From the IMG/VR virus record IMGVR_UViG_3300048074_000120, positions 32,001 to 96,000 of that record: a stretch of DNA of 64,000 nt; one strand, given 5' to 3'. The notes under the pieces were generated by a model. That model was not told the origin of the DNA. It saw only the letters and a program-made list of their open reading frames with translations, and did no database searches. Made by a program: the position numbers and the translations under genes. Shown here piece by piece: positions 2,635 through 36,417 of the stretch. Origin of the DNA: a virus. Position 1 is the stretch's first letter, and every line of letters begins with the position of its first letter.

Positions 2635-2999
2635 GACCGGTCTTTTCTTCTACCCTTCAACACCACAGGGCGTTCGGTAGTAGGAGCCACAGTGCCCTTA
2701 GGTTCACCCACCACCTGCGTCTCTTGAACGTCAATGTGCCGAACAGGGAGGCTGCCAAAGGTACCCGATTGAGGTGCCAGTAGCTGCTTTGCTCGAAGGT
2801 AAGCCGGGGGTAATTGGTCAATCGACACCGCACCGACCGTAAGCACATGTGATAGCCGTGCCCGCATCGTGGGAGTGTCCTCGACCTCCACAAACTGGCC
2901 GGGCTCGATGACGCGACGGTGCGCCACAATCTGCTGGTTGAGCAGGCTGTAGCGCTCAAGAACCGGCGTTGAAACGTCCGTAAGGTTGTAGACGCGCAT
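2631..2999 (-). CDS. hypothetical protein
   Basis: Translationally coupled to both neighbours (overlapping stop/start codons). Confidence 0.7.
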   Translation of the reverse strand: MRVYNLTDVSTPVLERYSLLNQQIVAHRRVIEPGQFVEVEDTPTMRARLSHVLTVGAVSIDQLPPAYLRAKQLLAPQSGTFGSLPVRHIDVQETQVVGEPKGTVAPTTERPVVLKGRRKDRS

Positions 3000-13366: not shown

Positions 13367-16249
13367 TTAGCCCTGGTAGGTTGGGCCCGAGTACGAGGAC
13401 CAGACACTACCCACAGCGTTGGCATCCTTGCTCGGAGCAATGACGTCAGGACGTGGCTTCGTTATCATGGAAGCTAGGAAACAATAGAGGATCGAATGGA
13501 AGGCATCATCAGTCTTGCCTGCCGTATGCCCGTATTGAATCATGCGAATCTTCTCGTTGTACTCACTGAAGATGTTCAGCATGTCCTGCCCGTAGGGGGC
13601 CTTGAATTCCTTCCAGCGAGGGAACTCGAGAACGGTGCCACGCTTGATGGAATTGAAGATGGCGCTCATCACTTCTGTGCGGTGGGTTATCCAGCGCTGT
13701 AGCTTGTTCTCCCAGCGGACCTTGGCTGACAGTCGAGCTGCGTACTGATAACGCATCACACGCTCACGCCCAAAGCGGCGAACCAAAAAATCGTTTGGGT
13801 AATGGCCACCACCATAGTCGGCGCCAATAATACGGACGTTGTACGCGCGCAGCACTTCTTCGATCTTCTGCAGCTGTCGCTCAGGCTCAGTGTCCTCACC
13901 GACAAAACGGTGAATGTAGAAAATCCGAAACTTACTCCCGATGTACGTGCCAAGACTCAGCACCGTGTAGCTATGCTCGCCCGTATTCCCTTGATAAGAA
14001 ATGCAACCATTGCGCTCAGTAACAATATACCCAGTAGGTACGGCACAACAGTAAACTCTGCCCTTGTACGGGACATGCGCGATCGAATTGGATGGGGTAT
14101 TGAACGAGTAATCCCCCGCCATAGACCACATAACTCTCCACCGTGGTTTTCTATTACCCTCAGCGGGCTTGTGCAAACGAACTACAGCGCGCAGCCCAAT
14201 ACGAATACAAAGCTCCTGGAAATCTTCGCAAAGACCCTTTGAGGTTGAGTAGAAAGCCCCTCCAGTGCAGCCTTCACGGGGATCGTCATAGCCATCCCCA
14301 TCTACCAGAGCCCGAAACAATACCCAAAGCTGCTCTGGCGCTAATTCCAAGAACTCCCGGGGTATACGCTTACTATCACAAGAAACTCCGATACTGTCTG
14401 CGTACCACTGCCAATACTGCTTTCCGTAAATTGTCCAATTCACATCACCAGTACTCGCGTTTGGGAACGTGCTGAACTGCACGCCCATCCGCTCCATGCA
14501 GCTTTGCATCTTCAGGTATGTCTCATAGTTGACAGTTTCGCGCTGAGACATTTTCAGACAGGATGGGCGCCCCTTGTCAAAGCACAGACCGCCCTCAGTA
14601 ATCAAATACCCGAGTAGTTCAAGCCAGTCATTCATTTTGAATGTAACGGCGTCAGAGCCCGAATACCCGGAGCTGACAGGTAAGCCTGGCAATACGAAAT
14701 TTTCCCTAAACTCACCAACCCAATTCAGAGCACCTACGAACTTTACGTTTCCGCCTCGATCTGCGAGTTGCCCAGCTGACTCAGTAACCCACTTCTCACC
14801 TTGTGAAGTCCCAACGCGCATGCGGTGAGTATGCGTCACCATCAAGTCCATCCCGCCCTTAGTTTTGAAATGCAGTAGAGGCTGGTCCCACTCTCGAACA
14901 GTCCTAGCCTTGGGTAGTACGAAGGTCATCTCTCGGCTGTCAGGATCCCACTGAGCTACCTTATCCGCATCCGTCAGATCCCTAAAATACTTGAAGCCAG
15001 TCCCTGTAAGTATCCTCGTCTCTTCGTCATGGCAGCCCCAGTCGATCCCAGCAAAGATCTCCTGACCAAAGCCAAGCGCCTGGTACTTGTGGGCGTCGGC
15101 CATGAACACATTCTCGTTGCAACACGCACGAATCTGAGCATTCGTCAGCGGGCGCAGCCCCGTGTCGTAGGAAATCCCAAGGACTTCGTTGTAGAACTTG
15201 TTTCGACCGTAGTGCTCGAAGTTGTAGAGAAGTTCATCCCAGTCGAGCCACGGCACCATGAGCTGAGGGATGCGGAACCCCTCAAAGGGCGTGTGCACTG
15301 GGTCGTACTCAACGGAGCATGCCCACTGGGCATCGTCCGTCATCGGGAAGATCTGTTTGCCGCACTTCTCACAGATGAGGTGGTGCAGCCCAATGTTCTT
15401 CTCGCCAAGAATGTTCCAGAACCTGCCTGCCTCACCGATGGTGCAGTCGCAAGGGACAACCCACTGGTTCTGCGTGGAGCGATTTGCCCAGTAGTCTTCA
15501 ATAACGTTGTCCAGCGTTAGCGGCGTGCCTGAGTAAACGTATCGCTTCAACTCCTCAGGCGAGTGGGATAGGCACTGCTCGATGACGGGGATGTTATCGG
15601 CAAGGATGTTCTGAATCTCGTCGATATCCAGCATGTGCGCGGGGACGCCGCGGGCACGGTCTGCATTCAAGAAGGCATTACGGAGGGTAATCTTCGACCG
15701 ATTGACGAACTGCTTTTCGAAGATGTTCTGCGAGAGCATGTGCGTTGTGAACGCGCGCAGCACCGGGCTTGTCTCGATGGGCTCCTTGATACGGTCATTC
15801 GAAAAGGTCTTCGTCTGCGTCGCCGACGGACTGACGTAAAGAACTTTGTAAGAAGGGATGAGGCAGCAGTAGCTCAACGAGCGGTTACCAAGCAGCGTGG
15901 ACTTCTCCACCTGGCGACCACACATAAGAAGGATTCTTCGAATCGGCGTGTCGTAGATTTGACGGAGGTGCCGACGGCCTTCGAACGAGAAGTTCTCATA
16001 CCCATCCGGCGTGGGCATGCGAAAGGCATACTCGGTAAACGCCGAGGGAAGTATCTGAGGCATGACGTCGTTTTCGACGTAAGGATCAAACTCATCCTCA
16101 AAGCAGTCCTGGTATTCCTCTGCCTCGGGAACCCAGTAACCCCCAAATTGTATTTTCTGTAGCTCCTCATCTGAAAGCGGTGTACCCTCAGCACCAGTAT
16201 CGTCTGGATGCTCAGAGATGTCTGACGGGTAAACCTCAACGGCGGCCAT
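13367..16249 (-). CDS. terL: terminase large subunit (lambda gpA-like) containing an intein
   Basis: GGAGG RBS; GRQVEKST Walker A, DIDEIQ Walker B, SGTP, CxC...CEKC, FYNEVLG, GIDWG nuclease motif; about 610 aa after splicing. Confidence 0.92.
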   Translation of the reverse strand: MAAVEVYPSDISEHPDDTGAEGTPLSDEELQKIQFGGYWVPEAEEYQDCFEDEFDPYVENDVMPQILPSAFTEYAFRMPTPDGYENFSFEGRRHLRQIYDTPIRRILLMCGRQVEKSTLLGNRSLSYCCLIPSYKVLYVSPSATQTKTFSNDRIKEPIETSPVLRAFTTHMLSQNIFEKQFVNRSKITLRNAFLNADRARGVPAHMLDIDEIQNILADNIPVIEQCLSHSPEELKRYVYSGTPLTLDNVIEDYWANRSTQNQWVVPCDCTIGEAGRFWNILGEKNIGLHHLICEKCGKQIFPMTDDAQWACSVEYDPVHTPFEGFRIPQLMVPWLDWDELLYNFEHYGRNKFYNEVLGISYDTGLRPLTNAQIRACCNENVFMADAHKYQALGFGQEIFAGIDWGCHDEETRILTGTGFKYFRDLTDADKVAQWDPDSREMTFVLPKARTVREWDQPLLHFKTKGGMDLMVTHTHRMRVGTSQGEKWVTESAGQLADRGGNVKFVGALNWVGEFRENFVLPGLPVSSGYSGSDAVTFKMNDWLELLGYLITEGGLCFDKGRPSCLKMSQRETVNYETYLKMQSCMERMGVQFSTFPNASTGDVNWTIYGKQYWQWYADSIGVSCDSKRIPREFLELAPEQLWVLFRALVDGDGYDDPREGCTGGAFYSTSKGLCEDFQELCIRIGLRAVVRLHKPAEGNRKPRWRVMWSMAGDYSFNTPSNSIAHVPYKGRVYCCAVPTGYIVTERNGCISYQGNTGEHSYTVLSLGTYIGSKFRIFYIHRFVGEDTEPERQLQKIEEVLRAYNVRIIGADYGGGHYPNDFLVRRFGRERVMRYQYAARLSAKVRWENKLQRWITHRTEVMSAIFNSIKRGTVLEFPRWKEFKAPYGQDMLNIFSEYNEKIRMIQYGHTAGKTDDAFHSILYCFLASMITKPRPDVIAPSKDANAVGSVWSSYSGPTYQG
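13985..15034 (-). mobile_element. intein with LAGLIDADG endonuclease in terL (350 aa)
   Basis: GIDWG|CHDEETRILT ... ERNGCISYQGN|TGEH; LLGYLITEGG and LFRALVDGDG motifs. Confidence 0.92.
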
Positions 16250-20790: not shown

Positions 20791-22062
20791 CTAGCCACCA
20801 TTCCCTAACAGCGTCGCATCACCAGATGTGACTGAACCAGCAATCTGTAGCATCATAGGTACTCCGCCAATCGGGGCAAAGCCTGGAGGCCCCGGTACCG
20901 CCATGAGCAAGTTTGGTGGAAGGGTACAGGTAACGGTGGACCCAAGCGTGGCAATGGGGGTCTTACCTCCATTGAACTTGATGACCTTGCCCGTCAGCTC
21001 AAACGTACCGCCTACGGTGACCTTGGCGTCGTTCTTCACGCTCATGTTGAAGGTGTTGTCAGCAAAAATCTCCATCTCCTGCTTTACGCGAAGCCGCAAC
21101 TTCTTTGTGCAAAGGAGCCCCACGTTGCCATTGAACTTGAGAAAGGCATTACCCGCTCTATCAAAAGAAAACTTCAGCTTCACAAGAGATCCGGTGTTTG
21201 GCAACAGCGAGCTGTCTTCCCCGTTGAACCCGCCACGGGCCAGTGTCAGCTCGTACACGATGGGCTCGGTCTTGCCGAGCTCTGCAACCTGTTGATCAAC
21301 GAGGGCATCCTCATCGACCTCAGGCACAGGATCATGCACACGCCCCGCCGCGATACGGATATCGGCGTACTTGTCGTTCGCGTACACACGCAGCGCCTGC
21401 TTATACTCCGTTGGCAGGTTTGTAATGCCTTCCCCCTCCTGAATGCCCCATCGAATGGAACCCCCAGCCGTATGCATCGCATAGTTCTCAGCAAAGTCCA
21501 TCACCATGTTGTTGAGTGGCACGTAGATGCGCTGCGACAGCTCATTGGCACCTATCTGCAGCACACCTCCACGATGAAGCACGATGAAGTTCCCATCGCG
21601 CCCCCGCACGAACATATCGCCGGGCTTTGCCGTAGGACGCCCGCCAGCAAAGCTTGCGTTCGTCGCAGACTGGTTGTCGCTCCCGTGGCTTGTAGTCCCA
21701 TCGGGGGCGTCCGGGCTCGTTGCCATAGGGATCGTCTCGTGCGGCATCACAAACGCCAGCACGAAAGGAGGAGAGCTATCCCCTGGCCAACACACAGCAC
21801 ACTTGGCGCCGACCTCGGGCATGACGCTAAAGCCATCCCCACGATTCGCATGCAAGTAAGGCGAGCCAACAGGGATCTGAAAGCAGCGCTGCTGGTCGAA
21901 CTGGCTAAAAACGTCTACGGTGTAGTTCACCAGATCGACGTTCACCACGCGACCGAGGAAGATATCCGTTCTGCCCAGGCCCTCGGGGGACGTCATGGAA
22001 GAGCGGAACTCTGTCCGCGGCATCCGTGCCCCACGGGCTGCACTAAGTCCTTGCCTGGGCAT
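20791..22062 (-). CDS. baseplate central spike (Gp5/GpV/VgrG-like)
   Basis: N-terminal OB-fold pattern GRVVNVD...MPEVGAKCAV; C-terminal beta-strand repeats (FELTGKVIKFNGG...VTSG). Confidence 0.7.
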   Translation of the reverse strand: MPRQGLSAARGARMPRTEFRSSMTSPEGLGRTDIFLGRVVNVDLVNYTVDVFSQFDQQRCFQIPVGSPYLHANRGDGFSVMPEVGAKCAVCWPGDSSPPFVLAFVMPHETIPMATSPDAPDGTTSHGSDNQSATNASFAGGRPTAKPGDMFVRGRDGNFIVLHRGGVLQIGANELSQRIYVPLNNMVMDFAENYAMHTAGGSIRWGIQEGEGITNLPTEYKQALRVYANDKYADIRIAAGRVHDPVPEVDEDALVDQQVAELGKTEPIVYELTLARGGFNGEDSSLLPNTGSLVKLKFSFDRAGNAFLKFNGNVGLLCTKKLRLRVKQEMEIFADNTFNMSVKNDAKVTVGGTFELTGKVIKFNGGKTPIATLGSTVTCTLPPNLLMAVPGPPGFAPIGGVPMMLQIAGSVTSGDATLLGNGG

Positions 22063-25000
22063 TAGTAGGCGTGCCTCGGTACATTGTGCAGGTGCGACAA
22101 AGCCAATCGTCCTTTAGCGTGCTCAGCGTTCAATCCAAACTCGCTGCCCACAGCCATGCCTGGGATCGGGTGCAAGCCATGCAGGTTCGACCTAGCACCA
22201 ACATTGGCGGCATCAAGCAGCGTGTCCGTTAGTCGCTCGTGCTGAAGCTTAGCCATCCAATCTTCCTGCAGCGACAACGGCATCATCTCCACGCCCTTCA
22301 AAACGGGCTCATGCTCGATTAGCCGCTTGCCGCTTCTGGCCAAATCCCGATTGACCGCACTAATGACTGAGGTGGGATGAAACTCACCCCGAAGTATACC
22401 CTCACCGTCACCAGGGTCCCGAATCTTGGTGAGGTTACTCATGGCCTTGACGACGGTCTCGATGTGACCCCGCTTGATGCCTTCGTCCTTGTACAGGCGA
22501 TGAATCTCATCGGCCATATAGTTCTGGACGGACTCAATGCTGCCCGTGGCCTTGTAGAGATCGTGTGGATTCACGATAGTACGGCGCGGATCGCTCAACA
22601 GCTGACCACGCTCCACATGCATCCCCACATGCGGCGGGGCCCAGCCTGCCACGGGTTCATCAGACGCCGGTCGCCACAGCGGCGTACCGCCAACGTCTTT
22701 GCCCACATGGTGCTTCTTGCCGCCGACGAAGACGTTCACACCCGTAGAGTCCTTCTCGACTCGCTCGATAGTGCCTGACTTCATGGCAACCGCGGCCACC
22801 GTCGGATCACCAGGCTTTGGCTTCGGTAGCGTCATCAGCTGATTGAACCGGTCAAATCCGCCAAGCACTTTTGAACCGCCACCTGTGTCGACGGAGCCAC
22901 CCGTATGGAAAACGCGCAGCGTCAGCTGCATAGCGCGCTCGCCTAACGACTGGGCCGCTACAACGCCAATATTCTCACCGATGTCGTGCATGTGACCGTT
23001 CGCTGAAATGCCCATACACTTTTGGCAAACGCCCTTGGCATGCTCGCACTTCAAGGGGCTACGTACCTCAATCTTAGCGGTCTTGTCCGCTGCCCGCATC
23101 TTCGAAACAACATCAGAGGTAAGCAGCGTGCCGGCAGGTACATGCATGCCCTTGGCGCTGAAGTCCTTCTGCAAGAACCGATCGTGGACATCATTGTCAA
23201 CAACCGGAAGCACAATCCCTCGAGCCGTCCCACAGTCGTGCCCTGACACCACCATGTCCATGGTGTTAGCCATCATCAACTTCGATAGGTAACCAGGCTC
23301 GCGCACCTCTTGTACTTTCATCACGGCACCGTGCCGGGCTCCGTGCATCTGCGTCCAATACTCCCCGGTATCCAAGCCCTCCGCATAGCTCTTAGTAATC
23401 GGCGTTGGAATGACCCTGCCCGACGCATCCTTCACGAGCATAGGTGCTAACGTGAGCTGCTTGTATTGGTTCCAATCCGGCTTTACCCCAGCAAGGTGCA
23501 TGGTCATCAGGTTACTCGGGCCGCCCGCATGCCGCAGCAAATGCTCGTGCTGCATCTTATCGGTGGCTTCCTTCCAGATGCGAACGAGCTCTCTGTCCCC
23601 CTTGGCGCCCTGCATGTGCTGATTGTTGGTGACCGCGTCTGCCTCTTTCCTAGCAGCCGAAAGCACGCGCTCTCGCGTTGCAATGTCAGGCGCTAAATCC
23701 GCAAGGCTCAAGGTGTGCACCCCAATCGGGATGTACATACGCTTTGACGGGTCAAGTCGATCAGCACCTACGTAGCCATCGTGCTCAACCGTAATGACGC
23801 CGCTTGCCGCACCGTTACCAATATCTTTCAGCTTGTCAGCCACAGCACCGTAGTCGCTGCTGTGCTCTTTGCCCACTTGCGTGAGTACCTTGTCCAACCC
23901 CTTCTTGTTCAAACGAAGGCTGAGATCGGTCAAGAACTTCCCCTGCATGGGTTCTGGCAGCGCCGCCGCCATGAGGATTCTGCCGGGGGTTGTTGTCTGC
24001 GACCCGATACGTATCTTGTCATTCACGGACAACTTACCCTTTTGGACGGCAATCAGCGCGTCTGCTGGGTGAGCCATGTCGTGAACCTTCGACTCCTCAT
24101 TTACTCTCGAGAGCTTGTAAAGGCCTAGCGCCGCCTCTAGCGTTGGCTGGTACATGGCCCTTCCGGAGGCCTCACTGAAGAGGTTATGCGAAGGGAACAT
24201 CTTACGGGCCTCGGCCACAGCCTCGTCACTGACTGGTACAAACACGCTCATCGTATCGCCATCGAAGTCCGCGTTGTACCCACCAGTAACTAGCGGATGA
24301 ATCTTGACAGCATTACCTTCCACGACGCGCGGCTTGAACGCCTGCACGCTGTACTTATGAAGCGCCGGATCTCGCTTCAAAAGAACAGGCCGCTCCTCGA
24401 GTACGGTCCGAAGTGCCCTCTGCGCCGCAGGCGTGTTCTTGGTAACCATGCGCTGCGCATCTAGCACCGTAGCGGCCATGCCAGACTTCTTCAACTGCCC
24501 TACGACAAACGGGGCAAACAACTTCATGGCGTGCTCAGCAGGCAGCCCCACCTCGTCCAAAGACAAGGAAGGCTCGGGCACGATGGTTGAGCGCATGCTC
24601 AAGTCTTGCTTACGGCTAATCAGCGTGCTCTGGAAGTACCCGGTCTTTGGCTGCGCGCCTTTGATCTGGTGCAGTAGCCCTTTATGCTTTGCATCCGCGT
24701 ACGGGATACCAACCCCCGTCAGCGCCTTGACGCCGTCATAGAGACCGGCCCGGAGCGAGGACTTAGCCTCTTCCGTGAGGTTGCCGACCAGGGTGGGATC
24801 CTTCAGCTGCATATTCAACTGGGCAAACTGTGAATAGAGCTCGTTGATGTCCGAGACCTTGAAGTTCCCATCCGGCAAAACAGGGATTGGGCGCATTGCG
24901 GGGGGAAGCACAGGAATGCTGTGCAGCACATAGGCCTCCGCTGGAGAGAGACCCGCCTGCTGCAATGCCTGCAGACGCTTCACCTTCTTCAAGATGGAGT

Positions 25001-28000
25001 CCACCTTAGAGGTAGGCGCCGAGTCCAACTGGCGCTTTGCCGACTTCAACTCGCTGTCCACATTTACGCCAGACAGTAGATGGTAGATAGCCGAGCCACC
25101 CGTAAAGCCTTTGCCCAAGGCAACCGGTTTACCCGCCGCATCGATGGCCTTTCTGCCCTCAACTAACCCGGTGTAGTCCTCTGCACTCAATCCCGTGATG
25201 GCTCGGATAGAACTCTCAAAGACTGGGTTCGGCACTGGCTCTGCTAGCTCGATGCGGCTCCACTTCTTGCCGCCGTGCCCACCCGTTAGCTTCTCGTCAA
25301 AAAGGCCCCCGGGCTTTGGCTTAGGCTCACCTGACTTTGGGTCAAGCTTTGCATAAAGCATCTCAGCGGGCTTCGGTAACACGCGATCTTCCGTCAACGC
25401 CTTGATGTGAGCGTCCGTCAACGGAGAGAGCACAAACTCATGCCCCTTCTTCTCAATGTTGATGCCAGCACCGATGAGCATGTCGGTGAACTTCTTGAAG
25501 GCAAACGTAGGCTTTGGTACCGGCAAGGGATCCCCATGCTGAATGGCGTCCCACACATCATGGTGCTGGCTCTGCCACTGCTTCTGGGGACTTGCCGACA
25601 TGTCCGGGCCTTCGCTCTTCCAGGTCTGCATTTCCCGGATATTCGCGCGGGCGCCATGGGCGAGCATCGCGTAAAGGCCCAGAGGATCCATGGACTGACC
25701 ACCGGCGTGCCCGCCGCCTGACGGCTGCAAGTTGATATCGTACTTCCCGGGCTCCTGCCCAGGCAGGTTCAACCCAGAACGCACCGAGACTTTCTTGTCC
25801 ACCTGATGGTGCAACTTGATCATGTGCTGGTAACCAACCAGCGCTTGACCCAAATCTTGGCCCGTCGTGGGATCAACCAGATGCTCGGTGTCACTGATGC
25901 CGTGCTCTTTCAACTCACGCTGCACCTTGGCCAATTGGTTTTGTACACCGAAGTTGTTCACCACGTAGGGCTTACCAGTCTTCTTGGCAATCTTGCTTGC
26001 TGCCGTCTCGAGCACTTGTCCCACATTCATTCGACCTGGTACACCAGATGGATTGAGCGCCACCTCAATGTGCTTGCCGTCCTTGGTATGCGGCATCTCC
26101 TTGTCAGGAACTACCTTCGTAACGATGCCTTTGTTGCCGTAGCGGCCCGCTATCTTGTCGCCCACCTGCATGGGCTCAATAGCCTTGATGTGAACAATGA
26201 CCTCGCCACCTTTACGAAAAGCCCCAACAACTTCACCGGGACCTTCCCCGTGCCACACCAAAGAATGGTCAGCGTACTGATCCCCGAGGCTCTTACGAAT
26301 CGCAGACAAGCCCGTTCGATCTTGCGTACTCGTCTTCTTCATCGCTAGGATCAGCGGGTCACCGGGTGACACACGAGACCCAACTCGAATGACGCCGTCG
26401 TCACCTATCGAGCTGACCTGGTCCCTGTTATAAATCCCGATATGCTGGGTCAAGTAGCGACCCTTGGCAAGCACAGTGTCGTCGTCCACCGCCAGGTTGT
26501 GCTTATGCAAATGGACACTGCTCAGCTTCTTGGCGGCGCTTTCACTAACAACGACGCCGTCTTCGAAGTTGTAACCCTTGTACGGGATATAGGCCACTCG
26601 CAGGTTTGTGCCGAGCGCAATCACACCCTGCCGTGAGAAGTTTGTATCAGCCACCACTTGGCCCTTACGGACGTGGTCACCAACCTTCACCAAGGGAGTT
26701 GAGTCGAGCACTGACTTGGCGTCATTCAGTGGGTAGTTACGATAGATCTGAACCTCATGGTCCCTACCGTCATGACCTGCGATAACAACTGAGTCGTTTC
26801 CTACCTTCTTCACGGTACCAGCGGCGGGGGCATGGTGCGAAGCCTGTGTCCCGATAACTTCTTCGAAGGTGCTTGCCCCTTCCCAGTCGCGGCCCGTCCC
26901 TACCCGCACGAGCGGTGCCTCTCGATGTTCGAGTGAAATGGCCTGTTCCATGTGGCGCGTCGCCATGGAGGCACGCCCGCCAGAGGTGTTGTTGATGAAC
27001 GGAATGAGGTTACTTGTGACGTTGAAGAATTGAGACGGATGCCTCATCACATAGTCGGCATCCTTCAAGTGCCCCTCGGCAATCTCATTGCCAGGCGCTG
27101 ACCACTTCACCGTAGAGGACTTCGGGGTTGGGTGGTCATCGTGCCACTCCACCTGGTCAGGAAGTACAACCTTGGACTTCAGGAACTTGGCCGGGCCCAC
27201 GTACTCAATCTGTCCGGTCGACATATTGTAAAGAGGCACCTGCGGCTCGTTGCCGTGTTTTCGCACGCCTAGTGGCATGCGCAGCGTCACTCCCGTTTTA
27301 CTTCCTTCCGGTGTGTGGATGGGATCCAGGAAGCACATGTGCGACGGGTTGACGAACTTGACCTCGTCCAAGATGGCATTCTCTGACTGAATACCGCCCG
27401 GGCCCATCACCGTGGTCTGTTGCGCGGCAGAGACCATCTCGACGGGATTCACCTGCTTTGCTACCTGCGCGGCCGAGTTCTTGTGAAAGGTCTCTCGGAT
27501 GGGCTTATTGAATGCCTCAAGACGAACGACGTCCCTAGGATTACTTGCCTCGTTGATCTGTCGCATCATCTTGCGGCGGATTGCTGGGCCTTCCTGCATT
27601 AGCTTCTCGTAGGAAAAATCACCCACGCTACGCAGATCCTTGAACACCAAAGAGTCTCGATCATCGGAAGGGGCACCGCCGTGCACATCGAGCATCTTCT
27701 TAGTCGCCCGCAGCATTACATCGCTATCCACGTGATCCGCAGGCTTACCAAGGGTGAGGGCGGTGGCATCCGGACGCATATCGAACTCTTTGAAGTGCTG
27801 AGTCACATTGGCCACAGCCGCTGCGTGCGAAGGAGGGTCTACCCTGCGCGTTGTTCGATAGAAGCTGTCCACGGCGCCTGCCACATTGCGGGCACCTTTG
27901 TTGGCAGCCAAGATGTCCTTGCCCCAGGACTTCTCTAAATCGGCGTCGGAAACGCCAAGGGTCGTTAGCAGCGGATAAAGCGGGATGCGTGCCTTAGTGC

Positions 28001-28469
28001 CGAACTCGACACGGAACTCTTTCGAGTCGTCGTCGAAGGTCACCTTGAAGGAAGGCTTTTTGGAGGATTGAAACTGGGTCTCGATCTGCCCTGTCTGCCT
28101 GCGTCGTACATAAGCTCCGGGCTTGAGCTGCCACTGGTTGTCTACTTGGTACTCCTGCCCAGAGATAATCTGGCTGTGCCGGCAAGTGACCTTGGGTAGC
28201 TCCGCAATTCGCGTCTTCGCCCGAGTCTCTTTGCCGCTCACTTTGTCCCGAAGAACCAAGTGTGCAATCACAGGCACTCCCCAGGTCTGCCCGGTCACCT
28301 TGGCCTGGTGTTGGCTGCGGATGTCATCCGGGTCAAGGCTGTCCTGCACCTCGAGGTGCTCCAACTCCAGTACTTGATTTCGGCCGTCGACTGGAAACTG
28401 CTTCCTAATCGCTTCAAGCGAACGGTCACGGTAGTGGTCAAAGGCTTCGGTTGGGTCCAAGTACGACAT
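22062..28469 (-). CDS. rpoBC: single-chain fused beta-beta' DNA-directed RNA polymerase (2135 aa)
   Basis: beta motifs GPGG, TPEG, GYNFED, GDKIAGRYGNKG, LNPSGVPGRMNVGQVLE; beta' motifs VLPP.MRP, KRDPALH, NADFDGD (24255-24275), HGARHG, C..GVCQKCMG, QLTLRVFHTGG; start MSYL at 28469 with GGAGA RBS. Confidence 0.95.
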   Translation of the reverse strand: MSYLDPTEAFDHYRDRSLEAIRKQFPVDGRNQVLELEHLEVQDSLDPDDIRSQHQAKVTGQTWGVPVIAHLVLRDKVSGKETRAKTRIAELPKVTCRHSQIISGQEYQVDNQWQLKPGAYVRRRQTGQIETQFQSSKKPSFKVTFDDDSKEFRVEFGTKARIPLYPLLTTLGVSDADLEKSWGKDILAANKGARNVAGAVDSFYRTTRRVDPPSHAAAVANVTQHFKEFDMRPDATALTLGKPADHVDSDVMLRATKKMLDVHGGAPSDDRDSLVFKDLRSVGDFSYEKLMQEGPAIRRKMMRQINEASNPRDVVRLEAFNKPIRETFHKNSAAQVAKQVNPVEMVSAAQQTTVMGPGGIQSENAILDEVKFVNPSHMCFLDPIHTPEGSKTGVTLRMPLGVRKHGNEPQVPLYNMSTGQIEYVGPAKFLKSKVVLPDQVEWHDDHPTPKSSTVKWSAPGNEIAEGHLKDADYVMRHPSQFFNVTSNLIPFINNTSGGRASMATRHMEQAISLEHREAPLVRVGTGRDWEGASTFEEVIGTQASHHAPAAGTVKKVGNDSVVIAGHDGRDHEVQIYRNYPLNDAKSVLDSTPLVKVGDHVRKGQVVADTNFSRQGVIALGTNLRVAYIPYKGYNFEDGVVVSESAAKKLSSVHLHKHNLAVDDDTVLAKGRYLTQHIGIYNRDQVSSIGDDGVIRVGSRVSPGDPLILAMKKTSTQDRTGLSAIRKSLGDQYADHSLVWHGEGPGEVVGAFRKGGEVIVHIKAIEPMQVGDKIAGRYGNKGIVTKVVPDKEMPHTKDGKHIEVALNPSGVPGRMNVGQVLETAASKIAKKTGKPYVVNNFGVQNQLAKVQRELKEHGISDTEHLVDPTTGQDLGQALVGYQHMIKLHHQVDKKVSVRSGLNLPGQEPGKYDINLQPSGGGHAGGQSMDPLGLYAMLAHGARANIREMQTWKSEGPDMSASPQKQWQSQHHDVWDAIQHGDPLPVPKPTFAFKKFTDMLIGAGINIEKKGHEFVLSPLTDAHIKALTEDRVLPKPAEMLYAKLDPKSGEPKPKPGGLFDEKLTGGHGGKKWSRIELAEPVPNPVFESSIRAITGLSAEDYTGLVEGRKAIDAAGKPVALGKGFTGGSAIYHLLSGVNVDSELKSAKRQLDSAPTSKVDSILKKVKRLQALQQAGLSPAEAYVLHSIPVLPPAMRPIPVLPDGNFKVSDINELYSQFAQLNMQLKDPTLVGNLTEEAKSSLRAGLYDGVKALTGVGIPYADAKHKGLLHQIKGAQPKTGYFQSTLISRKQDLSMRSTIVPEPSLSLDEVGLPAEHAMKLFAPFVVGQLKKSGMAATVLDAQRMVTKNTPAAQRALRTVLEERPVLLKRDPALHKYSVQAFKPRVVEGNAVKIHPLVTGGYNADFDGDTMSVFVPVSDEAVAEARKMFPSHNLFSEASGRAMYQPTLEAALGLYKLSRVNEESKVHDMAHPADALIAVQKGKLSVNDKIRIGSQTTTPGRILMAAALPEPMQGKFLTDLSLRLNKKGLDKVLTQVGKEHSSDYGAVADKLKDIGNGAASGVITVEHDGYVGADRLDPSKRMYIPIGVHTLSLADLAPDIATRERVLSAARKEADAVTNNQHMQGAKGDRELVRIWKEATDKMQHEHLLRHAGGPSNLMTMHLAGVKPDWNQYKQLTLAPMLVKDASGRVIPTPITKSYAEGLDTGEYWTQMHGARHGAVMKVQEVREPGYLSKLMMANTMDMVVSGHDCGTARGIVLPVVDNDVHDRFLQKDFSAKGMHVPAGTLLTSDVVSKMRAADKTAKIEVRSPLKCEHAKGVCQKCMGISANGHMHDIGENIGVVAAQSLGERAMQLTLRVFHTGGSVDTGGGSKVLGGFDRFNQLMTLPKPKPGDPTVAAVAMKSGTIERVEKDSTGVNVFVGGKKHHVGKDVGGTPLWRPASDEPVAGWAPPHVGMHVERGQLLSDPRRTIVNPHDLYKATGSIESVQNYMADEIHRLYKDEGIKRGHIETVVKAMSNLTKIRDPGDGEGILRGEFHPTSVISAVNRDLARSGKRLIEHEPVLKGVEMMPLSLQEDWMAKLQHERLTDTLLDAANVGARSNLHGLHPIPGMAVGSEFGLNAEHAKGRLALSHLHNVPRHAY

Positions 28470-28556
28470 GCGTTCTCCAGAGTATAGCCGCACAGGCTGG
28501 CCAAATGCTCATGGAATGTGCGCAAGGACAACGGAAACACCGAGATAAGAGCTTTG

Positions 28557-28739
28557 ATGGAAAAACGCAACCGAGCTCCGGAAGACACCAGAGCTCAAAA
28601 GGCACAAGAAAAGCCCGAGCCCACCCAAAGCTCAGGCCTGCGCTACGAGAATCTAGTAGCCAGCTTGTTCTGCGGTAGGGACAAAAGCCAGCCGGTCTAT
28701 GCGGACCCTGGTGCAACTACAACCGGCAAGAAGAGATAA
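28557..28739 (+). CDS. small hypothetical protein
   Basis: 60 aa from ATG 28557, first ORF of the plus-strand block; weak RBS. Confidence 0.4.
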   Translation: MEKRNRAPEDTRAQKAQEKPEPTQSSGLRYENLVASLFCGRDKSQPVYADPGATTTGKKR

Positions 28740-28746
28740 GAAATAC

Positions 28747-28866
28747 ATGAGAGCTCTCATGATCTGGGCGTTCATCACCGGGCTGCTGAATGGAGTCCTG
28801 ATGCGGCTACAAGACTTTTTCAGGGAGATGGAGGAGCTAGATGCTAGTGAACCCGTATGCCGCTAA
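28747..28866 (+). CDS. small single-TM protein (39 aa)
   Basis: My translation MRALMIWAFITGLLNGVLMRLQDFFREMEELDASEPVCR; below the ORF-track cutoff. Confidence 0.4.
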   Translation: MRALMIWAFITGLLNGVLMRLQDFFREMEELDASEPVCR

Positions 28867-29452
28867 TAGCGGTGAACTAGCAGCAATACCAGGCACGAAT
28901 ATCCTAGTAGAATCGTGGGGGGTGGTTGGGACGACGTTCATCGACCCAGCCTACCCCGAGCGAGAGTGGACAGTCCAGGGGCTGTATCTCCCAGTGACAG
29001 GCAGAGCACTCGGGGGAATTCGGGCAAGAGTGATGGACCAAAAGGGGTTCATGAGCTTCTGCAACCAGCGGGATCTCGAAGTCCTCATTGAAGAGTCCAC
29101 CCCTGGGACATTCTGCCGATGGCTAGGAGAGGAGTACCTGGAGCCAGGTGATCCTGGCTGGTGCGGTCTTTGTGTAGACAGTGAAGACCTCGTTGACGAC
29201 CTGTTCGAGCGAGAGCTTGAAATGCGTGCGCAGTACCCCGAGGGGGCGCAATTGCCAAATGGCCTAACCATTGAGAGGCGAGTACACGACGGCAAGTACA
29301 ACGACTACATAGAAACTCTGATGCTGCTGTGGGATTACAACACGGAAGAGAACTTCGGCCCAGACCCACGGCTGGAGACAGTGCAGCAGCGCTGGAGAAG
29401 CGTGGAGCGCACTAACGGAAGGGAACGAATGCACTTATGGAGCAGGCTGTAG
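28841..29452 (+). CDS. hypothetical protein
   Basis: 203 aa, GGAGGAG RBS. Confidence 0.75.
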   Translation: MLVNPYAANSGELAAIPGTNILVESWGVVGTTFIDPAYPEREWTVQGLYLPVTGRALGGIRARVMDQKGFMSFCNQRDLEVLIEESTPGTFCRWLGEEYLEPGDPGWCGLCVDSEDLVDDLFERELEMRAQYPEGAQLPNGLTIERRVHDGKYNDYIETLMLLWDYNTEENFGPDPRLETVQQRWRSVERTNGRERMHLWSRL

Positions 29453-30027
29453 ACGACTACGAGGATGACCTCGAAGACGAAGAAGCAGTAGTGCTTGAAG
29501 AGCCAACCGGCTGCCAGTGCGTGCAATGCACAGACGAAATTGAGATGGTGGCTGAGGTATTCCTTCTGCGAATAGTTCAGCCATACTTCGTTGATGGGCA
29601 GCTACAACACATTGACGTTGCTGGTCCAGACGGCGGGTACGCCTATGACCCGGCGTTCTATTGTTTCGACTGCTGGGAGGAAGTACAAGAGCAGCTAACT
29701 GAGCAGATGGAAGATGCCCCGCCGCTGCAACACCCGGCTGGGCTTCTGCTGTGCGATATCTGCCAGAGCGATGTGCTCCAAGGCGAGATAGTCGGAATGG
29801 TGAGCTTCGGAGAAATACACTGGTCGGAGCGAGCCCCCAACCACGAACGAAGCCCCGTGTTCGTTGACATGGACAATGGCGAGCCAAAGCACATCTGCAT
29901 TGGCTGCCTATACCACCTTGAAGAGAATAGAGATCACCCACTCTGGGTAAATGGGGTAGAGCCCATGCCCGGAGTCACTGCGCCAACCCTTGACGATTTG
30001 TTTGGACGAACCTGGAGAACACGCTAA
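29437..30027 (+). CDS. acidic double zinc-finger protein
   Basis: Four CxxC pairs (CVQC, CFDC, CDIC, CIGC). Confidence 0.7.
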   Translation: MEQAVDDYEDDLEDEEAVVLEEPTGCQCVQCTDEIEMVAEVFLLRIVQPYFVDGQLQHIDVAGPDGGYAYDPAFYCFDCWEEVQEQLTEQMEDAPPLQHPAGLLLCDICQSDVLQGEIVGMVSFGEIHWSERAPNHERSPVFVDMDNGEPKHICIGCLYHLEENRDHPLWVNGVEPMPGVTAPTLDDLFGRTWRTR

Positions 30028-31284
30028 ATGGCCACTAGAAAAACTGCCGCAACCACAGCCGACGCACTCACCGCTGCCTCCCTGCGGAGCAGCGAGATTG
30101 ACGAAGTTATCGAGGTATCAGTCTCAGCGCCCATGGATGGGTACCCCGGGCAACCTGACTGCAAGTGGGGGTTGCCGCTGCTCATTGAAGGGGACTCTGG
30201 CATCGCCAAGACTGCCCGAATCAAAGGGGTAGCTACATCGCTTCAAACGACGTTGTCCACCATCTACGCCGCGCCCCATCCGCCAGAAGACTTCGGTGGC
30301 GCACTCATCCCCGACGGCGAAGGCGATGCCAAGCAAATCGCACCGCTGCCACAGATCCGAAAGATGGTCAAAGAGAAGGCAGGCATCCTCTTCTTCGACG
30401 AGATCAACGGCGCCATGCCTGCTACGCAGGGCGCGCTCATGAGTCTCATCCACGAGCGGCACACAGGCGACGTAGATATACCTCCACGCGTACGCATCCT
30501 CGCCGCCATGAACCCAGAAGAGATTGCGGCTTGTGGCTTTCGGCTATCGCCACCCTTGGCGAATCGCTTCATCCACGTCACCGACCCTGGGCCAGATGCC
30601 CGCGAGTGGATCACCTGGCTGATGGGATCCTCTGCGACAAAGCTGCAAGGATCCCTTGATGCCATCGAGAAAATCGTCATTGAGGAATGGCCCAACCGGT
30701 ACCCCGAAACACAGAGCCTGTTTGCCGGCTTCATCGAGAAGATGCCCTCGCTGCTGCATAAGCGGCCACCCATGTCTGACCCCCAAAGCGGTAAAGCTTG
30801 GCCCTCCCACCGTACGTGGGACTTTGCTACACGCGGCTGGACTACGGCCATCATCCTAGAAAAGAACGACTCCATTCGAGACGCCATGGTGGAAGCTGCC
30901 GTTGGGCCCGGTGCCGCTGAAGAGCTCATTCGCTACTTCAGGGAGGCAGACATCCCTAAGCCCTTGGACGTACTCAATGGTAAGTGGAAGATCAACATTG
31001 ACCGGCTCGATGTTGTACTTGCAGCGTACACAGGCGCTGTTGCCTACGTTCGGCAACGGCCCAGCCGCGAGGAAAAAGAAGACCTAGCACCACTCGCCTG
31101 GCAGTCTATTGCAAAGCTGTTCAACGCGGGCCTTGCCGATATCGTCATCCCCGCCGTCGAAGGTCTCATCAAGGAAAGACTCGGGCACAACTCCGGGAAT
31201 AAATCCATCAAGGAAGCAGCCAACCTTGTGCTGGTCCCTCTATCAAAGAGCAAACTCGCCAGTCACTTAGACGCAAGGGTATAA
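30028..31284 (+). CDS. MoxR-like AAA+ ATPase
   Basis: GDSGIAKT Walker A, LFFDEIN Walker B, AAMNP sensor I, LSPPLANRF arginine finger. Confidence 0.9.
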   Translation: MATRKTAATTADALTAASLRSSEIDEVIEVSVSAPMDGYPGQPDCKWGLPLLIEGDSGIAKTARIKGVATSLQTTLSTIYAAPHPPEDFGGALIPDGEGDAKQIAPLPQIRKMVKEKAGILFFDEINGAMPATQGALMSLIHERHTGDVDIPPRVRILAAMNPEEIAACGFRLSPPLANRFIHVTDPGPDAREWITWLMGSSATKLQGSLDAIEKIVIEEWPNRYPETQSLFAGFIEKMPSLLHKRPPMSDPQSGKAWPSHRTWDFATRGWTTAIILEKNDSIRDAMVEAAVGPGAAEELIRYFREADIPKPLDVLNGKWKINIDRLDVVLAAYTGAVAYVRQRPSREEKEDLAPLAWQSIAKLFNAGLADIVIPAVEGLIKERLGHNSGNKSIKEAANLVLVPLSKSKLASHLDARV

Positions 31285-31287
31285 CGC

Positions 31288-33009: not shown

Positions 33010-36000
33010 TTAGACCGTACCAGCCGCGCGCCGTGGCGGCAGCTTATTGGGGAGCGGTCGCATATCCACTTGCGTTGCTGCAGCACCATTGGCGCCCAAG
33101 CCTGGCATGCCCCCCTGCGACTGCCCTGTCTGAGGCACTGCATTGCCCGGCATCGTCTGCAGGTATTGAAGCACCAAGTCAGCAAGTTCAGGCGACTGCG
33201 CGCGCAGCTTCTTGATGGCAAGGATCTGGCTAGCCGGATCTTGCTGTGCAAGCTGCATGGCTATCGTCTGCGCCATCGCTAGGATGTTCGAACCACCCAG
33301 CATGGCCTGACCCTCGGGGCCTGAACTTGTACCCATGCCCATGTTCTGCCCCAGTCCAAGCGGGCTTTGCATAGAAGACATTGGGTCGTTCGCCGCCTGC
33401 GACGCACCACCACCAAGAGGCATCGGCATTCCGCCCTGACCGCCGGGAGGTGCCGCGGCAGCTTCGGGACCACCAGGCTCGCCAGGCGCGGCAGGGGCAG
33501 CCAGCGCCGCCTGCGCGTCTTGCTGTGCCTTGGCCTGCATCTTCATCATGATGGCCTGCTGCTTGCCTTGAAGCTCGGCCATTGCCATCTGCTGCTTTTC
33601 CGTGGCCTTCATGCGAGCGGCCGTCTCCCGCTCCATGATCTGATCTTCCTTCTCCTGACTAAGGTCGGAATCTGCCAACAGCGTTGTGTCGCTGACCTTG
33701 TTCGCCTGGTTGAGCTGGAACAGGTAGGCCTTGCGCTGAATGTCGTCCGCCATCTTGAATGGCTTGAAACGAATCTGCGCCATAGGCCAGTCCATGAAGT
33801 CTGCCACTTGTCGCATCACCCAATTGGCCATGCGCTCATGCCGCGACAAGTACACAATGAACTGGTTCTCAAGCATGCGCATCGACACGTTAGTGCCGGC
33901 ATAGCTGAGGCCACCCTTGATGAACTCAAGAGGGACCTGCATACCATTGATGAGCTGCTCGCTAAGCGTCTGCATCTCCTGCACCATGAGGAGAGCTCGA
34001 CCATCGCCACCAATCGTTTGGTTCCCTACGGGCAACGGCAAGATCGGAATGTAGTTCGGGTCCATGCGCCAACGGGCAATCTCAGTTGCCACATGGTCAC
34101 GCCAGTCCACGAGGTTGATGGTCGTGTTGTGTGTGGCTACACCGGCCACGCAAAACGATTTATCACCATGCATTTGAAACCCAATAACCTCGGGCACGTC
34201 ATGCACGTCTTCAATCTCGGAGATGCGCAGAAGCACGTGGTCTCCACGAAAGAGACCACTCTTCTGAGTTCCGTACGCCTCTAAACCTCTGGCTGGCACC
34301 TCGCCAGCAAACAACGAGCGCAGATGGTTGGCGGCCTCCCCATTGAAGTTCAGATGGTACGCAACAGCCCTGTTGATACTGGCCTCTGTGGGTTCCTCAC
34401 ATAGCACCCCGCCAATCAGACCAAAGGATAGTAAAAGACGGCGTGCCTCCATGATCAGTGACGGGTTAGCCAACTTCAACGCTACTCGATTTGTGCTGGT
34501 CTGGAAATCGCAGCCATCGCCTGCGAATAGCGCGCGTAACGCGCACAGCACAACCTGCACGCTGCCCTCAGAAACCTCCGCTGGCATTCGTTTCTCCGCA
34601 AACCCCTCACCGCACAAGGAGAATAGCAGGTCGGACAACAGCACGTCCTCAATAGTCACACTGCGTCCATTCTGTTCTGATCGCTCATGTACAGATACAC
34701 CACGGAACCCTAGACCCTTGACAGCCGCCTCTATCGCCGTTTCAATGTCGACTTCATTCAAGTGCAATGAGAACGACGCCAAGCCGCCCTTACTACTTCC
34801 CTCGGCCAAATAATACCCAATCAACTCGGCCAATCCAAGACTCATGGGCAGGTAGCGACTAACGCGGTCAATCCCATTACCAGCCCGGTGCATGCTGTAT
34901 GCCGTGGCGTAGTCATCTTCGGACCAACCCATAGAGAGCAACAGATCTTTACGCTCACCATGACCGTGCCTTACAGCTGGATGCTGCTCCAGCCATTCGT
35001 ACGCTTCCGCTGCCCCTTGACTCAGCCTGCGGTATACCCAGTGCTCGGTGGCGGCTCTCGACGTGTGCTCAGACAAGTCCAATAGCTCGCTCGGACGTAC
35101 AATACGCGTTATCGGGTACGCAACGTAGTCGCCTTTCCTTAGCTGTGCCGCTGGTATAAAGGCTGGGTCTACAAGTCCTTCTCTAGGTTTCTTCCTACCA
35201 CCCGCCCTTGGTACTGCCAAAATAGGGTGGTCCTCTGACACTACAAACGGAAAGGCTGGCAACGACGCTACCTTGAACCGGTACACTTTCTCTGCAGGTG
35301 CAATACGCCCAGGGATAGTACATGCTGGGTTTACCCCCCTCCGCTTGACCGCCTCTACTCGGCGCCAAGCACCGGTATGACTTCTAAGGTAATCACCCGT
35401 ACTAACTTCTGCTGCTCGAACCAACCCGCCTATGGTTTCTACTAACGTGTCAGGAGACACGCAGTATGGATCAGACGTGCCAGAGCCCGCCTGCGGAAAT
35501 AGAACACGCAACGGAAGAATATGCTCAAGGAGAATCGACTCCTGCGCCTTCTTCATGATCTGCAGATAAAACGTATCTTTCAAACAGGGCAGCAGCAGGG
35601 GCAACCCCCAGCCTCGATCTTGGTCGGCAAGCGTAGGCCGGCGCAGATGAAAGAACATGTCCTGATTGAAGACCACACCCTTTTGCTGACGAAGCGCCTG
35701 GATGAAAACCTCGGGGACCTGCTCAACAGCGTCCTTCTTACCAATGATGACGTCGTTACGAATGGTCGGTGGGATGTTGTAGAAGTAGGTGTAGTTCCCC
35801 GTGAGGTCCGAGTGTGTGACCTCAACATCCTCCGGGTTCCAGCGCATGACGCGCACGCCCGACTCATTCTTGAAGTAGATGTCCTTCGCGCGGGCAGTTC
35901 CTAAATGGCCACAACGCGGGCAGCTCAGCCTGAACTCGAAGTTCGTAAACACCCAGTGTGGGCGTATCCGCTTGGCCTCCGCCTGGTGCCCGCACCCCGC

Positions 36001-36417
36001 ACAGGTCAAGTACTTCTTGAACGGGAAGCTCAAACTCGATAGGCAGTTGCCGTACGTATGGTAGTCAAGACCGCACTCAATCTGGTACGCGCGATAGTTC
36101 AAGTGATCTTCGAAGTACTCCTTCCATTTGGAGGCAACCCTGCTGTCCTCATGGTCAATGAGAATCTCGGTGATGGGGTACTCGGAAAGCTTGAAGACCG
36201 TCGCGTTGATGATCGGGTTGGTGAGGAAGTAGTACCTGCACCACCGAAACATGTTCTTGACCGTAACGGGCAAGTACGTGTGCGCGATGTCGAAGAATGG
36301 GCTTGGGTAGTTGACACCCTGATTGAAGCCATTGTTGATGCGCCCACGTGTGGCAGCAAAACGCAGGCCTCCACCCGCGCCCACGCCACCCATACTCATC
36401 GCGCCAGGGATACTCAT
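33010..36417 (-). CDS. portal protein containing an intein and a zinc-ribbon insert
   Basis: Portal-like segments CRYYFLTNPII, GLDYHTYGN, RWNPE, GWGLPLLLP, GMQVPLEF; about 689 aa after splicing; Gln/Pro/Gly-rich tail. Confidence 0.8.
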   Translation of the reverse strand: MSIPGAMSMGGVGAGGGLRFAATRGRINNGFNQGVNYPSPFFDIAHTYLPVTVKNMFRWCRYYFLTNPIINATVFKLSEYPITEILIDHEDSRVASKWKEYFEDHLNYRAYQIECGLDYHTYGNCLSSLSFPFKKYLTCAGCGHQAEAKRIRPHWVFTNFEFRLSCPRCGHLGTARAKDIYFKNESGVRVMRWNPEDVEVTHSDLTGNYTYFYNIPPTIRNDVIIGKKDAVEQVPEVFIQALRQQKGVVFNQDMFFHLRRPTLADQDRGWGLPLLLPCLKDTFYLQIMKKAQESILLEHILPLRVLFPQAGSGTSDPYCVSPDTLVETIGGLVRAAEVSTGDYLRSHTGAWRRVEAVKRRGVNPACTIPGRIAPAEKVYRFKVASLPAFPFVVSEDHPILAVPRAGGRKKPREGLVDPAFIPAAQLRKGDYVAYPITRIVRPSELLDLSEHTSRAATEHWVYRRLSQGAAEAYEWLEQHPAVRHGHGERKDLLLSMGWSEDDYATAYSMHRAGNGIDRVSRYLPMSLGLAELIGYYLAEGSSKGGLASFSLHLNEVDIETAIEAAVKGLGFRGVSVHERSEQNGRSVTIEDVLLSDLLFSLCGEGFAEKRMPAEVSEGSVQVVLCALRALFAGDGCDFQTSTNRVALKLANPSLIMEARRLLLSFGLIGGVLCEEPTEASINRAVAYHLNFNGEAANHLRSLFAGEVPARGLEAYGTQKSGLFRGDHVLLRISEIEDVHDVPEVIGFQMHGDKSFCVAGVATHNTTINLVDWRDHVATEIARWRMDPNYIPILPLPVGNQTIGGDGRALLMVQEMQTLSEQLINGMQVPLEFIKGGLSYAGTNVSMRMLENQFIVYLSRHERMANWVMRQVADFMDWPMAQIRFKPFKMADDIQRKAYLFQLNQANKVSDTTLLADSDLSQEKEDQIMERETAARMKATEKQQMAMAELQGKQQAIMMKMQAKAQQDAQAALAAPAAPGEPGGPEAAAAPPGGQGGMPMPLGGGASQAANDPMSSMQSPLGLGQNMGMGTSSGPEGQAMLGGSNILAMAQTIAMQLAQQDPASQILAIKKLRAQSPELADLVLQYLQTMPGNAVPQTGQSQGGMPGLGANGAAATQVDMRPLPNKLPPRRAAGTV
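34126..35463 (-). mobile_element. intein with LAGLIDADG endonuclease in portal (446 aa)
   Basis: SDPY|CVSPDTLVET ... SFCVAGVATHN|TTIN; LIGYYLAEGS and LRALFAGDG motifs. Confidence 0.92.

Follow-up and report, generated by a model that had tools for sequence, protein, structure and literature searches.

A phage gene predicted to encode a single-chain RNA polymerase core of bacterial type, and the large family to which it belongs

Introduction

Can a phage own an RNA polymerase (RNAP) of the bacterial type whose beta and beta' subunits are joined in one polypeptide, and which partners would such an enzyme need? The question is raised by one gene in a 64,000-nt stretch of viral DNA, positions 32,001 to 96,000 of the IMG/VR record IMGVR_UViG_3300048074_000120, which we call the window. 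Phage RNAPs of the multisubunit type are known already, and so are beta-beta' fusions in bacteria; the gene described here is a variant of both. We consider it likely that the gene encodes the functional catalytic core of a sigma-using phage RNAP with bacterial architecture, carried on one polypeptide. Coordinates are positions in the window unless they are marked as genome positions, and residue numbers are those of the 2135-aa phage protein unless E. coli is named.

The gene and its domain content

The longest open reading frame (ORF) of the window runs uninterrupted on the minus strand from a GTG at 28493 to 22062, corresponding to 2143 aa. M-[SA]-Y-L-D-P is the N-terminus of all close homologues, and the true start is therefore the ATG at 28469, which gives 2135 aa. 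This is the same ORF, at 22062-28469, that was pointed out in a first-pass annotation made from the letters alone. The same annotation saw about 1000 aa of beta blocks followed by the beta' blocks, with a junction near 25450, and the more detailed comparisons agree with it, with the boundary at about residue 1008/1009. The gene and its modules are:

22062..28469, minus strand: single-chain RNAP gene, 2135 aa plus stop, 232.9 kDa, isoelectric point 8.9
25446..28469, minus strand: beta module, residues 1 to about 1008, with the lobes, the fork and rifampicin-pocket region, the flap, the double-psi beta-barrel with GDK..GR.GNKG, and the clamp's C-terminal part
22065..25445, minus strand: beta' module, residues about 1009-2135, with the clamp, the double-psi beta-barrel with NADFDGD, the bridge helix, the second zinc site, the trigger loop and the C-terminal module
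25422..25469, minus strand: beta/beta' junction AGINIEKKGHEFVLSP, residues 1001-1016, placed by the alignment of E. coli and the family

Among the Pfam domains, Rpb2_3 and Rpb2_6 (residues 343-906) are followed by Rpb1_1, Rpb1_2 and Rpb1_5 (residues 1145-1886). When compared with solved structures, the first 1030 residues matched bacterial beta best (E 5.5e-76), with single alignments running from residue 30 to about 1000 on a 1100-aa cyanobacterial beta, and the beta' part matched bacterial beta' over residues 1129-2108 (E 1e-108). In the same search the 665-aa PDB chain 7s00_C, which we take to be a chain of the AR9 phage polymerase, reached E 5e-23 and archaeal Rpo2 E 7e-22, so that the protein resembles the bacterial type far more than either of these. 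PHROG matches to families of the phiKZ type were weak and partial. Two PHROG families of unknown function and about 1200 aa, phrog_25354 and phrog_24349, scored about as high as bacterial beta' and beta; being of uncertain provenance, they were left aside.

The gene is carried on one contig of 188,971 bp with a 240-bp overlap of its ends, which CheckV rates as 100% complete, and is flanked by the genes for the large terminase (13367..16249, minus strand) and the portal (33010..36417, minus strand). Its GC content is 56-58%, compared to 55.4% for the genome. The complete phage genome and the matches to bacterial beta and beta' bear out that this is a phage-encoded single chain of cellular type. 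There is only one beta' locus in the genome, and an RNAP of the T7 type was not found in it by a search whose control was uninformative; the fused gene is the only predicted RNA polymerase gene of this phage. The gene order is shared by a 186-kb contig of a relative with an RNAP of 84% identity. Compared with this relative, the gene shows a nonsynonymous divergence (dN) of 0.12 and a saturated synonymous divergence (dS). Purifying selection is seen along the chain, with dN/dS of about 0.04-0.07 in each segment where dS could be computed, and also over the junction (residues 901-1050), where it is 0.036.

Anatomy compared with E. coli

The comparison with E. coli beta and beta' was made in a MAFFT alignment with 51 family members. 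The end of E. coli beta, ..SLGINIELEDE, aligns with ..GAGINIEKKGH, and the chain then runs straight into the equivalent of about residue 20 of beta'. In structures of bacterial RNAP, the C-terminus of beta and the N-terminal region of beta' are neighbours within the clamp. Residues 860-1330 were modelled with AlphaFold2 from an alignment of 56 sequences; the model has a mean pLDDT (predicted local distance difference test) of 91.3 and a pTM (predicted template modelling score) of 0.87, passes the junction without a low-confidence linker, and in structure comes closest to the N-terminal parts of bacterial beta' chains. Joining the two termini directly would give a catalytic core in one chain. 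Retained in the chain are the two double-psi beta-barrels and their active-site motifs, the bridge helix and trigger loop, the second zinc site, and the clamp helices and flap. The positions of several of these elements, and of sites that are lost or altered, are:

26127..26162, minus strand: beta active site GDK..GR.GNKG, residues 770-781
24255..24275, minus strand: catalytic NADFDGD of beta', residues 1399-1405, the commonest intein site in homologues
23016..23243, minus strand: second beta' zinc site, four cysteines, all aligned and at least 90% conserved in the family
24714..24854, minus strand: beta' clamp helices, coiled coil kept, the positions of R275 and E295 of E. coli both Leu
26283..26321, minus strand: beta flap-tip-like helix, placed by alignment
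25236..25304, minus strand: scar of the zinc-binding domain, where T-G-G-x-x-G in every family member replaces E. coli beta' 64-95 with its four cysteines
27390..27482, minus strand: equivalent of rifampicin cluster I, with D516K, H526A, R529Q and S531T (E. coli numbering)

Highly conserved are the two active-site motifs, the bridge helix, the N-terminal arm of the trigger loop and the four cysteines of the second zinc site, and the lid and rudder region, the coiled coil of the clamp and the flap-tip-like helix are also retained. The stretches of E. coli beta which have no counterpart are 221-357 (SI1), 935-1038 (SI2) and 1127-1180 (bi11); in beta' they are 64-95 (the four-cysteine zinc-binding domain), 948-1098 (SI3), a part of the jaw (1138-1187) and the C-terminal tail. 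The zinc-binding domain is missing in all members of the family, including the Salmonella phage Arash. Together with smaller gaps these segments sum to about 600 aa, the entire difference in length from E. coli. The chain is indeed much shorter than E. coli beta plus beta', as first noticed, but this is mostly because lineage-specific inserts and the zinc-binding domain of beta' are absent, and not because core blocks have been lost. The rifampicin pocket is altered, which predicts that the enzyme is probably insensitive to rifampicin.

A large family with an unbroken junction

Family members were counted either as clusters at 90% identity, from a word-indexed protein search, or as representatives at 50% identity, from an exhaustive search with the beta' half. 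The first search gave at least 120 clusters of 2120-2160 aa with 100% coverage of the query and 55-90% identity, and many of these lie on contigs of 185-200 kb. The second gave at least 150 representatives, all of those listed with E <1e-159. The family is more diverse than the bacterial phyla that we sampled. The size classes rest on 269 listed proteins: 146 are 2000-2250 aa long, 83 are longer, and 40 are shorter and mostly fragments. A stop codon at the junction was looked for, and none was found in more than 230 independent clusters with the unbroken fusion. The single chain is not unique to this phage. It is the form seen most often in a very large and little-studied family, whose cultured members Arash and the Vibrio phages D69, D181 and D148 share the junction and have their beta' split further on.

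The longer proteins have insertions of more than 120 aa at TPEG (about residue 390), at GDK/GNKG (about 775), at NADFDGD (about 1408; 44 cases) and in the trigger loop (about 1860; at least 19 cases). Those of the insertions that we read have typical intein ends and LAGLIDADG domains, and the homologues that bear insertions (P0013, P0026 and 81 other clusters) are up to 4739 aa long. Insertions at the most conserved motifs imply that the protein is continuous and under strong constraint. Judging from the alignment with E. coli, the hot spot in the trigger loop is presumably the element where bacteria carry SI3.

Not all members are fused throughout. At least one lineage, on contigs of 125 and 185 kb, has separate genes for beta (1524 aa) and beta' (1036 aa), 4.3 kb apart. 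Nine small genes lie between the two in this lineage, and a LAGLIDADG-like gene follows beta'. In Arash and the Vibrio phages D69, D181 and D148, beta and the N-terminal half of beta' form one protein of 1525-1527 aa, and the C-terminal half is a separate protein of about 606-609 aa. Since the junction and the scar of the zinc-binding domain are common to both deep branches, the fusion predates the radiation of the family. The splits, within beta' or at the junction, would then be secondary, with homing endonucleases or extra genes in the gaps.

Phylogenetic position

The tree contains 27 sequences of the phage family and 30 bacterial beta plus beta' concatenates from about 10 phyla (1947 columns, LG+gamma, FastTree only, unrooted), sampled without Thermus, cyanobacteria, the candidate phyla radiation, Helicobacter, Wolbachia or archaea, and hence with no archaeal outgroup. 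The phage family and the bacteria form two clades with a long branch between them, and the support for the split is 1.0. Arash and Vibrio phage D69 belong to the monophyletic phage family (node support 0.83), where they are sister to all of the unbroken fusions. The bacteria are 50-86% identical to one another and members of the phage family 28-65%, and pairs drawn from the two groups share 23-29.5%; the window protein is 27-29.5% identical to each of the 30 bacteria, equidistant to the about 10 phyla. Nesting within a bacterial rpoBC clade is not seen, and the contig is that of a complete phage; the predicted protein branches outside the sampled bacterial clade.

In 185,579 species genomes, a pattern scan picked up ordinary rpoC genes only, the best of them 33-38% identical in the most conserved 366 aa. 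The top matches came from many phyla with equal scores, and there was no prophage copy among the best 80. A recent bacterial origin was considered and is rejected on the split in the tree, the uniform identity and these ordinary rpoC matches of equal score. A nucleotide search with the region (megablast, 50,697 phage records) gave no match, so that relatives are found only at the protein level. The family bears on how often, and when, RNAPs have moved between cells and viruses.

Sigma genes, and the absence of alpha and omega

The window holds no alpha, omega or sigma gene, as the first-pass annotation had stated, and a search of the rest of the genome extends this to alpha and omega, but not to sigma. 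The alpha models PF01000, PF01193 and PF03118 and the omega model PF01192 gave no real match in the complete genome, while the controls for these profiles were detected in 14 of 14 genomes. Two sigma genes were found outside the window. One of them, sigma253 (253 aa, genome 168251..169012, minus strand), has region 3 and weak regions 2 and 4 of the sigma70 family, and is 27.6% identical to gp10 of Arash over the full length (E 2e-22). It has a counterpart in five of five related genomes, six of six when its own genome is counted, across the deepest split of the family. The other, sigma192 (192 aa, genome 127261..127839, plus strand), has regions 2 and 4 and is closest to the FliA/WhiG models; no counterpart was detected in the related genomes, even where the RNAP is 84% identical. 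It may be a variable accessory gene, or one that evolves very fast, and some of the relatives have other small proteins with region 4. With two sigma genes in the genome, the enzyme is most likely sigma-dependent. It would start transcription with phage factors of the sigma70 family, the family-wide sigma253 and the genome-specific, FliA-like sigma192.

It was suggested at the outset that the fusion may remove the need for alpha. The alpha domain PF01000 is absent also from the five relatives in which it was searched for (three complete relatives, Vibrio phage D69 and Arash), and a fusion that dispenses with alpha fits the absence of the gene from six of six genomes. A different explanation is a hybrid enzyme, in which the fused chain needs the alpha dimer of the host, and perhaps its omega, as an assembly platform, and the fusion only guarantees a 1:1 stoichiometry of the two modules. 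This is a possibility to be taken seriously, although we would not call it the probable one. The beta-beta' fusions of Helicobacter and Wolbachia, as well as engineered fusions in E. coli, assemble with alpha and still use it, and the phage chain has kept the bacterial core fold throughout. Furthermore, no phage subunit that could replace alpha has been found, the neighbouring genes having no matches apart from a lead to baseplate-hub proteins for a 423-aa product. Such dependence is harder to reconcile with the absence of alpha genes from all six genomes and of omega from this one, and the hosts of the family are as different as Vibrio and Salmonella. With this spread of hosts, and with an identity of 27-29.5% to any bacterial core, conserved contacts with alpha are not guaranteed. 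The multisubunit RNAPs of phiKZ and AR9 also work without alpha (PMC7598289).

Late synthesis and association with the virion

In both deep branches of the family the RNAP gene is located within the morphogenesis block, beside the portal gene, and the enzyme is therefore probably made late. Synthesis from this block together with packaging into the virion fits the position of the gene. In the particle preparation of Arash, Gp206, which comprises beta and the N-terminal part of beta', had the top spectral count, 3516 compared to 1333 for the capsid protein, and Gp216 and the sigma factor Gp10 were detected as well (PMC10585845). By analogy with Arash, the virion may contain the enzyme, which would then begin to transcribe the DNA once injected. 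What weakens the analogy is that the proteome of Arash also includes ribonucleotide reductases, a kinase and pyrophosphatases, and its authors allow for carry-over from the lysate (PMC10585845). The preparation is impure, so packaging is not established by it, and the chances that the enzyme is packaged appear to be about even.

Instead, the polymerase could be made after infection and serve middle and late transcription only, with the host RNAP reading the early genes. We see this as possible, though less likely than not. The evident impurity of the Arash preparation would agree with it, and the region in front of the gene contains a conserved TATACT, about 13 nt before the start codon, that could be a -10 box of the host type:

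28470..28560, minus strand: conserved 5' region of the RNAP gene, TTGCGCA .. CGGYTATACT .. GGAGA .. ATG, kept in relatives at 84% and 71% protein identity

A scan for sigma70-type promoters upstream of the gene, however, found no site. A polymerase that stays outside the particle would also leave unexplained why its gene lies in the morphogenesis block beside the portal in both deep branches, and why Gp206 of Arash has the highest spectral count, above that of the major capsid protein. CGGYTATACT occurs only once more in the genome, and is thus not a repeated late promoter.

The idea can be taken further. It is conceivable, but rather doubtful, that the 233-kDa chain and one 29-kDa phage sigma make up a self-sufficient machine without alpha, omega or any host factor, which would be packaged, pass through the tail with the DNA and make the phage independent of the host RNAP from the first minute. 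The fusion would in that case be an adaptation for refolding and reassembly after ejection.

Promoter-like motifs and the use of sigma

The motif RGRGATAAG(A) is present in 18 copies in the genome, compared to 3.2 expected, and 14 of them are on the plus strand. They are mostly located 15-25 nt before the ribosome-binding site, usually with an NCAA-type tetramer about 15 nt further upstream, and cluster at genome 124-138 kb and 182-188 kb; the copies in the window are at 28732 and 40322, both on the plus strand. The GATAAG motif is enriched and strand-biased in three relatives too, and it resembles GCCGATAA, which we take to be the promoter consensus of sigma28. Elements of the GGGGATAAGAA type are carried on the phage DNA. 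Upstream of the RNAP gene, no GATAAG-type motif was found on the minus strand.

Several observations weigh against a sigma-using phage enzyme. The clamp helices of beta' are the main dock for sigma in bacteria, and the contact residues for sigma70 on them, presumably R275 and E295 in E. coli, are not conserved in the phage chain; with these residues changed, we infer the docking of sigma from co-occurrence only. The GATAAG motif can be assigned to neither of the two sigmas, nor to the phage core enzyme rather than that of the host, and close relatives in which the motif is kept lack the FliA-like sigma. The RNAP gene itself has no repeated promoter motif in front of it.

The phage sigmas could then redirect the host core, as gp55 of T4 or gp28 of SPO1 do, while the fused enzyme initiates in some other way. 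This is improbable in our opinion, although the loss of the zinc-binding domain and of the R275 and E295 contacts speaks for it, and sigma genes are found in many phages that possess no RNAP themselves (PMC7824862). The joint presence of sigma253 and the polymerase in six of six genomes across the deepest split of the family, the retention of the clamp coiled coil and the flap-tip-like helix, and the detection of the Arash sigma in the same particle preparation as its polymerase all argue that the fused enzyme itself uses sigma. That the gene is an artefact, whether through a chimeric contig that carries a bacterial rpoBC operon or through a sequencing error that falsely joined two genes at the junction, has practically no probability left: we found no point in its support, and it is refuted by the identity of 27-29.5% to every sampled bacterial enzyme (50-86% among bacteria), the monophyly of the phage clade, the synteny with relatives on phage contigs of 186-200 kb, a GC content close to that of the genome, and a junction that is open in hundreds of independent assemblies.

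Comparison with known enzymes

The rpoBC fusions of Helicobacter and Wolbachia resemble the phage gene in being one ORF that joins the C-terminus of beta to the N-terminus of beta' with the bacterial core architecture. They group normally within their bacterial clades and function with two alpha subunits, omega and a sigma of the host, whereas the phage protein is placed outside the sampled bacterial clade, has no zinc-binding domain and comes from a genome without alpha or omega.

The nearest known systems are those of Arash (Gp206 and Gp216 with the sigma Gp10; PMC10585845) and the Vibrio phages D69, D181 and D148, which belong to the same family as a sister clade, with about 31% identity over the whole length. 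They share with the window phage the junction, the deletion of the zinc-binding domain, an orthologous sigma, the lack of alpha and an RNAP gene beside the portal. Their beta' is cut after about residue 1510-1525, giving proteins of 1525 and about 606 aa, whereas the chain in the window is unbroken; ten genes lie between the RNAP parts in Arash, and a homing endonuclease is found in the gap in D181 and D148. The Arash paper annotates the RNAP genes and gives no analysis of the fusion, the missing alpha or the pairing with sigma (PMC10585845).

The RNAPs of phiKZ and AR9 are likewise phage-encoded two-barrel enzymes with cellular relatives, without alpha and of a rifampicin-insensitive type, and one of their enzyme sets is packaged in the virion (PMC7598289, PMC7824862). 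They consist of four to five polypeptides, are far more divergent, use no sigma and come as two paralogous sets (PMC7598289, PMC7824862). The window phage has one chain in one copy, a stronger similarity to bacteria, and sigma genes. YonO and the crAss-like gp66 are kin of enzymes resembling RNA-dependent RNA polymerases and are without most of the domains of beta and beta'. They have both barrels in one phage polypeptide, as the window protein does (PMC7824862), while in the latter the bacterial beta and beta' domains are complete and in order.

The types covered in reviews of phage multisubunit RNAPs are limited to the split phiKZ/AR9 enzymes, which have no sigma, and to those like YonO (PMC7598289, PMC7824862), and a full-text search of the literature, with most subscription journals outside its coverage, found no paper on a bacterial-type beta-beta' fusion in a phage. 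A paper on "moraphages" (PMC12619734) was set aside, as that lineage has no RNAP. The fusion would be a third way for a phage to own a cellular-type RNAP, in addition to split enzymes as in phiKZ and distant ones of the YonO/crAss kind, and the only one of the three that is paired with sigma factors. If it is active alone or with one small sigma, it would be the simplest bacterial-type polymerase known, with two proteins compared to six chains. Such an enzyme would be attractive for structural work on the minimal two-barrel fold and on the roles of alpha and the zinc-binding domain, and could serve as an orthogonal, probably rifampicin-insensitive transcription module. The questions about alpha, the missing zinc-binding domain and packaging can be tested in the cultured relatives, Arash and the Vibrio phages.

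Neighbouring genes

Genes for proteins of 423, 214 and 719 aa are translationally coupled to the RNAP gene. None of the three has a Pfam or PHROG match, or BLAST similarity to the Arash genes that follow the one for the C-terminal part of beta'. We considered them as accessory RNAP subunits and rejected this, as they had no matches and the Atlas lead for the 423-aa protein is to baseplate-hub proteins. In Arash, the gene that overlaps the end of the C-terminal beta' gene (locus 2262-3680) encodes a helicase of the SNF2 family, annotated only as a DNA helicase, which is abundant in the particle preparation. Its place beside beta' recalls the pairing of RapA with RNAP in bacteria. A homologue of this coupled helicase, gp217, was not detected in the genome studied here.

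The portal and RNAP genes are adjacent in Arash. In the window they are separated by a cassette of four plus-strand genes (28841-32724), which is kept in the relative with the 84%-identical RNAP and encodes two unknown proteins, a MoxR-like AAA+ ATPase (AAA_5) and a DUF2201 metallopeptidase/VWA protein. A divergent region, 28470-28840, lies between the RNAP gene and this cassette. It contains two terminator-like hairpins (28571-28639, minus strand) and possibly a small plus-strand ORF from about 28555.

Both of the flanking marker genes appear to be interrupted. The portal protein is 1135 aa long, compared to 579 aa in Arash, and has an insertion that begins with C-V-S-P-D-T-L-V at residue 318 and holds a LAGLIDADG-like domain (residues 626-668 of the portal protein); it is probably an intein. 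The large terminase is 960 aa long, compared to 603-609 aa in a relative with 91%-identical flanks, and its extra 350 aa (13985-15034, residues 406-755 of the terminase) start with Cys and have Asn followed by Thr at the end, as in an intein.

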